From positions 4,900,001-4,964,000 of the forward strand of contig CM075995.1 in assembly GCA_038087875.1 (NCBI GenBank): a DNA stretch of 64,000 bases, in the 5' to 3' direction. Positions 2,732-63,889 of the stretch are shown piece by piece. Both the position numbers and the translations under genes were made by a program. The notes under the pieces are model-generated. The model saw only the letters and a program-made list of their open reading frames with translations, made no database searches and was not told the origin of the DNA. Source of the DNA: Malacoraja senta. Lineage: Eukaryota. How positions within the stretch are numbered: position 1 is the stretch's first letter; every line of letters begins with the position of its first letter.

Positions 2732-3030
2732 TTTAGAGATACAGCGAGGAAACAGGCCCTTCGGTCCACCGAGTCCGCACTGACCAGCAATCCCCGCACA
2801 TTAACACTATCCTGTACACACTGGGGACAATTTGACATCAATACCAAGCCACATAACCTACAAACCTGTACGTCCTTGGAGTCTGGGAGGAAACTGAAGA
2901 TCTCGGAAAAAACCCACGCAGGTCACGGGGAGAACGTACAAACTCCGTACAGACAGCACCCGTTGTCGGAATTGAACCCGGGTCTCTGGCTCTGTAAGGC
3001 AGTAGCTCTACTGCTACACCACCATGTCAC
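2732..3030 (-). mobile_element. HE1-like SINE nested in a pLTR remnant
   Basis: The host pLTR is split at about 2731/3035; the whole unit is flanked by caatagctcttaa repeats. Confidence 0.85.
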
Positions 3031-3519
3031 CTCCAGTTACTCCAGCATTTGGTCTCTTTCTTTGGTATAAACCAGCATCTGCAGTTCCTTGTTAATACAA
3101 TAGCTCTTAATGTCAGGTTCATACCATGCGCATGTAGCTTATTTTGCATTTAGAGTGAAACTTTCCAAATGCAATATTTTGCTGTCATGAGAAAGTTGCT
3201 GAAGAAAATTGGAGATTAATTGGGGCCTGTTGTGTCTCTGCCATTTGAAACTGTGAGGCAAAAGAAAAAAAGACCTTCGCCCAGCAGTTTGTCTTCCGTC
3301 AGAAGCACTAACTAGAGCCAAATACAAAGAAAAGTTTGACCACACATTGTTTTCATTTAGTCTGCTGCAAGTGATGGCAGATATTGCTACGACATTCCTA
3401 AGGATTACTCGGAAGTATCACAGGAGTCTGTTTCTAACAATTAGTCTCCCTCTAGACCAAGGTACACAAAGAAAACCGAAGTGGACCCAGAGGTCCTGCA
3501 GAGTTTCATTGTCCGTATA

Positions 3520-3800
3520 ACTCGTTACCACCTGGCCCACTGGCAGCAATGGACCATTGTGGGCTCCACCTTTCCTTGATCGTCGTTACTTTTTGCATAT
3601 CTTTCGTTCATTTGTTCTATTATCTCTCTGTATCACTGTCTATATCTCTCGTTTCCCTTTCCCTTGACTCTCAGTCTGAAGAAGGGTCTCGACTCGAAAC
3701 GTCATCTGTACTTTTTCTCCAGAGATGCTGCCGGACTCGTTGAGTTACTCCAGCTTTTTATGTCCATCTTCGGTTTAAACCAGCATCTGCAGGTCTTTCC
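3520..3800 (+). mobile_element. Penelope pLTR remnant
   Basis: Same family as 25368-25655; hammerhead-like core at 3676-3703. Confidence 0.8.
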
Positions 3801-4061
3801 AATGCAGAAGTCCTGTTCTCTGAACCTCTGCTAGTGTACGTGGTGATCGCTGGTTGGCGTGGAGCCGGTGGGCCGAAGGGCCTGTTTCTGCGCTGTATCT
3901 CTAAAGTCTAAAGTAAATTAAACCACCGCCAGTGTACTACACTTGCCATACATCATAGTGTCTTACAGCGTGGAAACAGGCCTTTCGGCCCAACGCCCAC
4001 ACTGACCAACATGTCCCATCTAATCCCACCTGCCTGCATTTGTCCCATATCCCTCTAAACT

Positions 4062-62759: not shown

Positions 62760-63305
62760 GACTGGAATTTAGAAGAATGAGAGGGGGTCTTATAGTAACA
62801 TATAAAATTCTTAAGGGATTCGACAGGTTAGATGCAGGAAACATTTTCCCGATGTTGGAGGAGTCCAGAACCAGGGGTCACAGTTTAAGAATAAGGGGTA
62901 GACTATTTAGGACTGAGATGAGGAAAATCTTTTTCACCCAGAGAGTTGTGAATCTGTGGAATTCTCTGCCACAGAAGGCAGTGGAGGCCAATTCACTGGA
63001 TGTATTCAAGAGAGAGTTAGATTTAGCTCTTTGAGCTAACGGAATCAAGGGATATGGGGAGAAAGCAGGAACGGGGTACTGATTTTGGATGATCAGCCAT
63101 CTTCTTCTTGCGAATGGCTTGCACAGCCTAAAGTTGTAGGACAACTTGTTCTATTTGATCTTATTTGATTGTGCACACCTGTTTGTCGAAACAGGGCAGA
63201 CCACGTGAAGGTTGCAATCTCGCATCCCATGATCAGCCATGATCACATTGAATGGCTCGAAGGGCCGAATGATCTACTCCTGCACCTATTTTCTATGTTT
63301 CTATG
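62760..63305 (+). mobile_element. CR1 3' fragment hosting the 128-bp insertion
   Basis: ORF 62777-63034; the 3' UTR is split at 63100/63229. Confidence 0.9.
63101..63228 (-). mobile_element. 128-bp non-autonomous non-LTR retroelement (Vingi/Ingi- or RTE-like) with HDV-like ribozyme head and (AAG)n tail
   Basis: 12-bp TSD atgatcagccat at 63089-63100 / 63229-63240, inside a CR1 3' UTR. The minus strand begins GGG and ends gccattcgcaagaagaag. The head contains ACC-UUCACGU-GGU-CUGCCCU-G-UUUCGA-C-AAA. Confidence 0.8.
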
Positions 63306-63889
63306 TTCTATGTAAGATGCTGCTCGTTGAATCCATCAGTAGCCAGTCACCTTCCTGGGCTTCACTCCAGGCCAAGGTTTACACACCAAAATTCTATTTG
63401 AATGTCAGTGGGCAGCAGAAGAAAATACATGCGTGGGAAAGAACTGCAGATGCTGGTCTAAATCGAAGGTAGACACAAATTGCTGGAGTCAGGCTGCGTC
63501 AGGCAGCGTCACCCATTCCTTCTCTCCCGAGATGCTGCCTGTCCCGCCAAGTTACTCCAGCATTTTGTGTCTAGCAGAAGAATATACAACAAGGTTATGC
63601 TATTTCTTTTTACGTTTAGCAGTCTCAACAGAGGAAATATCTATTAACTTTAATTGTCAGTTAATGCTAGGTTAATTTTGAAGGGTTATGCCAGAGACTC
63701 AAGGTCATCACATTTTTATAAAAGCAGCCCTTGTTCAAGGCTGCTGTGTCCTGCAGAGTAGAGTCATAGAGTCAGTACAGCACGATCACAGGCCCTTCGG
63801 CCCAACTTGTCTGTGCCGACCAAGATTCTCCATCTAAGCTACTCCTATTTGCCCGCGTTTGGTCCGTATCCCTCCAAATCCTTGTAAAC

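Follow-up and report, generated by a model that had tools for sequence, protein, structure and literature searches.

Some LINEs and SINEs use HDV-like ribozymes (review, PMC6765202). For the R2 SIDEs and R2/R1 SIDEs of Drosophila, processing of the element from a co-transcript by the ribozyme has been reported (Eickbush & Eickbush 2012, PMC3414825). According to the same paper, the R2 SIDEs are about 0.5 kb long, rare, site-specific in 28S rDNA and possess a large ribozyme shown to cleave. The NARTc/L1Tc and RIME/ingi elements and the SIDERs of trypanosomatids are described as internal-deletion derivatives within the Ingi group, with an HDV-like ribozyme that cuts just before +1 (PMC4035085, PMC3383444). 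The NARTc/L1Tc head in these protists is reported to be 77 nt long, to contain P4 and to have shown promoter activity (PMC4035085, PMC3383444), and is regarded as both ribozyme and promoter (PMC3383444). Bipartite Vingi derivatives, e.g. those of Vingi-1_EE, retain only the 5' and 3' ends of the LINE after an internal deletion, as described by Kojima (2018, PMC5786205). The theta ribozymes were reported to follow tRNA genes with about 99% of their matches in Caudoviricetes, and the human and mouse genomes are named among those searched (Kienbeck et al. 2024, PMC10879173).

An insert found in the window, i.e. the whole analysed stretch of 64,000 nucleotides from the skate Malacoraja senta, was compared with these systems. 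The insert is a damaged copy of a non-coding element of about 138 nt that originates from both ends of a Vingi-like LINE, and the head of this element is likely a minimal HDV-type ribozyme that would cut at the first base. Similarly to the R2 SIDEs as described, it is a non-autonomous non-LTR element in which a 5' ribozyme, here a predicted one, is combined with the 3' end of its own LINE. In contrast to them, the skate element is 138 nt long, dispersed and present in about 9,000 copies, its partner is of the APE type, and its predicted ribozyme lacks P4. Its core is similar to that of NARTc/L1Tc, whereas the head is 54 nt long without P4, the host is a vertebrate and the partner has no RNase H. 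The design itself is already named, as SIDE or bipartite non-autonomous LINE. The interpretation of the earlier note on this DNA, a small ribozyme-headed family mobilised by a LINE, is supported, self-cleavage and the lack of a promoter being predictions; the minimal P4-less kind of the predicted ribozyme goes beyond it.

The coordinates of the features are presented in Table 1. The 128-bp minus-strand insert with identical 12-bp target-site duplications (TSDs), as had been noticed, was read directly from the sequence, and the (AAG)n tail is represented by (AAG)3 at 63101–63109, which closes the insert at its minus-strand 3' end. The sequence around the insert reads as the last part of a reverse-transcriptase ORF, a short UTR and a tandem tail, with the insert sitting in the UTR. 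The host repeat is taken by us to be CR1 on account of its motif. The empty insertion site was detected in 8 other copies of the host repeat within the 64-kb window (9 matches, one of which is the right-hand TSD), and the same pattern resulted in 0 matches in 100 shuffles.

Table 1. Features of the insert, its predicted ribozyme head and its surroundings in the window (bases of the head are numbered from G1).
Feature	Position	Strand	Basis or remark
Host repeat: 3' end of a CR1-type LINE (ORF remnant, UTR, tandem tail)	62768..63313	+	Name presumed from a motif
TSD copy 3' of the element, 12 bp	63089..63100	.	Direct reading
TSD copy 5' of the element, 12 bp	63229..63240	.	Direct reading; 8 empty paralogous host sites
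Short non-autonomous element, subfamily A, 128 bp (family about 138)	63101..63228	-	Direct reading, family alignment
P1 5' strand; G1 (63228) is the predicted cleavage site	63222..63228	-	Mismatches G4A and G7C in this copy
P2 5' strand GAUUGCA; partner strand deleted in the window copy	63213..63219	-	Alignment
P3 ACC/GGU closing L3 UUCACGU, conserved core	63200..63212	-	Comparison
P1 3' strand, last base U36 (G1.U wobble)	63193..63199	-	Alignment
G37 (P1.1 partner of C22), U38 and 5-nt loop replacing P4	63186..63192	-	Comparison
J4/2 C-N-A-A; C44 (63185) is the predicted catalytic cytosine	63182..63185	-	Alignment
Deletion scar: 12 family bases replaced by 2; P2 3' strand gone	63180..63181	-	Specific to the window copy
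5' arm of the stem closing the 3' domain	63170..63179	-	8 bp in the LINE and subfamily B, 10–11 bp in subfamily A
Hairpin AAGUUG/CAACUU: subfamily-A middle and start of the LINE-derived tail	63131..63147	-	
Last 39 bases common with the Vingi-like LINE (ORF end, 3' UTR, (AAG)n tail)	63101..63139	-	

The parse of the head proposed in the earlier note, from G1 through P3 and L3 to the candidate catalytic C, turned out to be correct base for base, and both P1 mismatches that it had taken as signs of decay are present. The downstream UGCACAAUC, regarded there as a displaced P2 strand, was assigned wrongly. The true P2 3' strand lay in family bases 48–59, and these 12 nt are replaced by 2 in the window copy. 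The Rfam scan of the window copy gave no ribozyme match. Due to the loss of the P2 3' strand and of two P1 pairs, the window copy is predicted to be inactive.

The insert had been proposed to represent a family, and it belongs to one of about 138 nt with thousands of copies. A BLAST search of the genome with the element resulted in 2,235 candidates, 40 of which were scored at 88–100% identity. Exact matches amounted to 1,456 for a 32-nt head pattern and 5,261 for a 19-nt middle pattern, with 0 for the reversed controls. A hand count over the first 37 Mb of C1 showed that, of 35 copies found with the head pattern, 21 were also found with the middle pattern, from which a total of about 8,800, or roughly 9,000, copies was estimated. 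Since a choice of copies by their heads was to be avoided, the sample was taken with the middle pattern: 90 of the first 100 matches were used and 8 duplicates were dropped, which left 82 aligned copies. The 5' start was G1 in 63 of the 82, fell on bases 1–3 in 74 and lay beyond base 19 in 3, so that the predicted clustering of 5' ends at G1 was observed in copies sampled without regard to the head. TSDs with a median length of 12 bp were determined for 72/82 copies, and in 61 they end within -1 to +2 of G1. The (AAG)n tails vary in length between copies, the insertion sites of the sampled copies are dispersed with unrelated flanks, and the 138-nt element has no coding capacity. The non-CpG divergence from the family majority was about 2%.

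The base preceding G1 in the 63 G1-starting copies was T in 36, compared with about 30% T in the flanks, and G in 8. The excess of T is probably a target-nicking preference. HDV-type ribozymes dislike G at position -1, which fits the low number of G before G1. Four copies (L413, L414, L429, L438) share one flank and have no tail, corresponding to an insertion into a later-amplified repeat. A pattern of the tail without the upstream bases of the family had 147 matches; among the 50 examined, one was a LINE end and one possibly had an unrelated upstream part, the others being short or truncated copies. Near-identical sequence was detected in 24 public runs from 12 studies with nine organism labels, all of them assembled contigs of mostly uncertain RNA status. 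The contigs span both the 5' and the 3' junctions, and in four runs 186–886 contigs each end at the same element boundaries, among the matches listed.

An autonomous LINE sharing both ends with the element, which the earlier note had suggested looking for, was found, although its copies are decayed. The end of its ORF was first read from a contig end in the public run X5. The ORF-end motif has 387 matches in the genome and is followed by the last 39 bases of the element in nearly all of the 30 loci examined. Near-full-length copies of about 3.3 kb start with the same head, and the ATG follows about 105 nt after G1. The ORF codes for an endonuclease and a reverse transcriptase, has a zinc knuckle in its C-terminal part and stops directly ahead of the tail. 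The C-x-C..H..C knuckle is presumably of the I/Ingi type. All near-full-length copies carry stops and frameshifts, and no intact parent ORF was detected, the longest open frame among the close N-terminal matches being 422 aa. The divergence of the LINE copies was about 3% (30 best matches of one query), comparable with about 2% for the element, and therefore the LINE and its parasite must have been active in roughly the same period.

The partner had been expected to be of the Vingi/Ingi or RTE type. The Vingi-like assignment stood; RTE was ruled out, as the relatives are single-ORF proteins of about 1,000 aa adjoining RNase H-bearing Ingi-like proteins, and the presumed I/Ingi type of the knuckle also speaks against it. 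The nearest intact relative, P0001, has 1,019 aa, is 64% identical over the C-terminal 272 aa and contains only endonuclease and reverse-transcriptase domains. The RNase H-bearing proteins are far more distant from the parent LINE. In the midpoint-rooted reverse-transcriptase tree, which was built without a named Vingi protein, 24 rows including the parent LINE formed a group apart from 4 relatives with RNase H, supported at 100/100. The partner LINE fits the Vingi definition as given in PMC13708176.

Several observations were made beside the search for the parent. An eel protein, P0002, shares 67% identity with the C-terminal region of the parent LINE. A search for the partner with Pfam PF14529 led to a different two-part LINE family, none of whose 30 loci match the element. 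The loci L031–L060 represent a young LINE family of another clade, which we take to be Nimb/I-like, with many copies having an open frame of 1,277 aa. In many copies of the parent LINE (5/30 loci) and in two metagenome relatives, a 5'-truncated body is fused without intervening sequence to the head in inverted orientation, which suggests that the second strand was primed immediately 3' of the ribozyme. A longer internal-deletion copy, L193 (C5:65169067-65172370), consists of the head and the last 1.5 kb of the LINE.

Two subfamilies of the short element were distinguished. Subfamily B, the older short form, is LINE bases 1–96 joined to the tail, i.e. a pure internal deletion, and its junction has 34 exact matches. 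In the dominant subfamily A, the middle is changed, a T4 run is lost, a hairpin is gained and the stem 59–69/114–124 is lengthened from 8 to 10–11 bp. As in SIDEs and bipartite elements, both ends come from one autonomous LINE with the middle deleted, and a TSD, a variable simple-repeat tail and the lack of coding capacity are found together; the described bipartite Vingi derivatives (PMC5786205) are similarly composed. The statement of the earlier note that the element has no tRNA head was confirmed: a tRNA was called in 0/5 loci and the head is the LINE's own 5' end, unlike that of a tRNA-derived SINE.

The first 54 bases of the family majority likely fold into a minimal HDV-type ribozyme, judged from pairing and conserved bases. 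The majority pairs in full in P1 (1–7/30–36, with G1.U36), P2 (10–16/48–54) and P3 (17–19/27–29), and has L3 UUCACGU, P1.1 C22-G37, a 5-nt loop in place of P4 and C44-N-A-A. The family P1 that had been predicted, GGGGYGG/CCGCCCU, holds, and so does the predicted UGCAAUC strand of P2 directly after C-N-A-A. Considering the features of HDV-like ribozymes, the 7-bp P1 has G1.U36 in 62 of the 63 copies with both bases, the 7-bp P2 crosses P1, the 3-bp P3 closes a 7-nt loop, C22-G37 is present in 76/77 copies and C44 stands at the start of J4/2 in 76/82. The 5-nt loop for P4 and the total of 54 nt correspond to the minimal or theta type; P4 has 24–43 nt in five sister families. Every pair of P1, P2, P3 and P1.1 together with C44 was intact in 33/82 copies, and in 47/82 neither P1 nor P2 had more than one mismatch. 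Frequent non-CpG variants occurred at position 8 (joiner), at 31 and 32 with the pair kept, and at 45 (the free N); one shared variant breaks a P2 pair in 4/78 copies. Deletions through L3-P1 were found in 6/82 copies. In single copies no protection of paired bases was detected (53/2,413 paired bases changed versus 14/867 unpaired); such even decay is expected of dead copies and thus gives the fold no support.

The pairing was also compared across related LINEs. With an endonuclease query, at least 5 other related Vingi-like families were found in the genome, each with its own HDV-type head including a P4 of 25–43 nt; some are younger than the parent and have open frames of 863–986 aa. A metagenome scan resulted in three more related families with heads. 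Upstream of the ORF, a head was present in 6 (L314, L304, L306, L307, L353, L359) of the 16 metagenome loci examined, the remaining loci being without a 5' end or distant. In the comparison of six LINE families with different P1/P2/P3 sequence, 89/90 cells were paired and double changes occurred in 12/15 columns, with a shuffle maximum of 73 (20,000 shuffles, which ignore kinship). A ribozyme descriptor had 10 matches in 874 kb of LINE loci, at or beside LINE 5' ends, and 2 in 2.6 Mb of shuffles; as the descriptor requires pairing, this count and the six-family count are partly circular. When P2 was placed by pairing alone, the C lay four bases before P2 in 7/8 families, and no P2 was found in this way at a ninth, decayed locus. 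Sister family V3 has a longer J4/2.

These heads also bear on how the element is transcribed. Copies would begin just as sharply at G1 if transcription started from an internal promoter. The head could be dual as in L1Tc/NARTc, a self-cleaving ribozyme in the RNA and an internal polymerase II promoter in the DNA, so that the element would not be promoter-less. There is a described precedent in the sister Ingi clade (PMC3383444, PMC4035085), and dispersed sites with unrelated flanks would be easier to sustain with an own promoter. However, the sister heads vary freely in the sequence of P1, P2 and P4, only the pairing and the core being kept, and no conserved non-structural motif was seen across them. 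The dual head is considered rather unlikely, and read-through from host transcription is the preferred route.

The P4-less form was compared with sequences outside the LINEs. A pattern composed only of the invariant core and spacing had 13 viral matches. All 13 possess a perfect 7-bp P1 starting with G.U, although P1 was left open by the pattern, and a tRNA-like arm just upstream, with an ARAGORN tRNA call in 11 loci. The 13 sequences agree with the theta ribozymes, for which cleavage in vitro has been described (PMC10879173). The theta ribozymes and the head of the element have in common the absence of P4, the 7-bp P1 with G1.U, an identical 13-base P3/L3 core, G-U, a 5-nt loop and C-N-A-A. 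In contrast, theta ribozymes belong to phages and cleave at the tRNA 3' end, and the element is a vertebrate retroelement with no tRNA. Consequently, the head, which is neither coded by a phage nor situated at a tRNA 3' end, was not classed as theta.

With Rfam, an intact copy scored 14.4 bits (E 1.7) with HDV-F-prausnitzii, RF02682, over exactly bases 1–54 (cut-off 44). The family cut-off was not reached by the element's own head in either the intact or the window copy, and neither scored with RF00622 (CPEB3). The intact copy L021:1485-1606 had a weak Phage_DGR match (16.5 bits, E 0.72) overlapping the ribozyme core, a hint that a related motif may occur in this phage RNA family. With ViennaRNA, which cannot represent the pseudoknot, the z values were -1.24 for the whole intact copy (23/200 shuffles as good), -0.96 for the window copy and 0.12 for subfamily B; significance was observed only for the 3' domain (z -3.71, 0/200 shuffles).

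The loss of P4 and the weak Rfam score could mean that the fold is mainly a protective cap and a protein-binding handle, with cleavage slow or dispensable for the short element. Cap-like protection by the fold has been described for R2 templates (PMC13708176), and the several LINE copies in which only the head is inverted at the 5' break suggest that the protein engages this region. On the other hand, phage sequences that lack P4 and have this core are members of a class reported to cleave (PMC10879173). Moreover, both the G1.U pair and the C in the catalytic position are kept across families. A mainly protective role is regarded as improbable.

That subfamily A is a polymerase III SINE carrying the ribozyme as a passenger inherited from the LINE is the least probable explanation: four consecutive T, which polymerase III reads as a stop signal, are present in subfamily B (34 junction matches) and lost in subfamily A (5,261), and UUCGA at 39–43 resembles by eye a part of the B box, but no tRNA was called in 5/5 loci, the A- and B-box-like stretches are 3 and 2 mismatches from the consensus, the same head stands on a 3.3-kb LINE with many T runs, and the shared variants respect pairing.

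In the preferred mechanism, with a self-cleaving head and a LINE partner acting in trans, a copy situated in a transcribed host region would be read through by RNA polymerase II. The head would then cleave itself 5' of G1, resulting in a unit-length 5' end protected by the compact fold. The Vingi endonuclease/reverse transcriptase, supplied in trans, would bind the shared 3' end and nick DNA, and target-primed reverse transcription of the unit-length RNA would generate the TSDs of about 12 bp. Every new copy that is intact would carry the ribozyme within itself and could thus act as a source.

The sister heads resemble a known mammalian RNA, the CPEB3 ribozyme. The Rfam model CPEB3_ribozyme matched 4/8 sister loci with 55.6, 34.4, 27.9 and 19.9 bits (cut-off 35); the two highest values belong to L314:2106-2189 and L274:504-586, respectively, both of which are LINE 5' ends. 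The element head has the same L3 loop and single-pair P1.1 layout as the CPEB3 ribozyme (RF00622), which is, however, a single intronic copy with a P4 stem, the element being P4-less and present in thousands of copies. The same L3 and P1.1 context is found in the 5' end of Vingi-2_Gav as given in the supplement of PMC5786205. A Vingi origin of the CPEB3 ribozyme was not found in a full-text literature search. The main text of the CPEB3 evolution paper PMC8233481 contains no wording on retrotransposons, transposable elements or origin, and no link between Vingi and CPEB3 occurs in the available text of PMC10919898, the AbRiDGed preprint, PMC5753468, PMC3391268 and PMC3277949. The element family and a P4-less ribozyme in a vertebrate retroelement were likewise not found in the full-text literature; Repbase, Dfam and patents were outside this search, and a prior description is possible.

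The broadest reading joins three proposals, for which we see the arguments as evenly balanced. A minimal ribozyme of the theta type, which has been regarded as occurring almost only in gut phages, would be the working head of a vertebrate retrotransposon family with about 3,000–4,000 intact self-cleaving sites in one genome. The heads of Vingi LINEs would supply vertebrates in general with HDV-like ribozymes, and a domesticated Vingi 5' end would be what mammals possess as the CPEB3 ribozyme. With sister heads near-identical to the CPEB3 ribozyme, the origin of the mammalian RNA becomes a directly testable question.

The Vingi clade is now used for RNA-only gene insertion, according to PMC13708176. 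If the head cleaves, the element would be among the smallest ribozyme-driven retroelements, and its 138 nt would hold all that the Vingi protein needs in cis; the element would therefore map the minimal template. In that case, minimal HDV ribozymes would no longer be a matter of phages but would number thousands in a vertebrate genome, and sense-oriented intronic copies would cut the host pre-mRNA, which is a testable cost.
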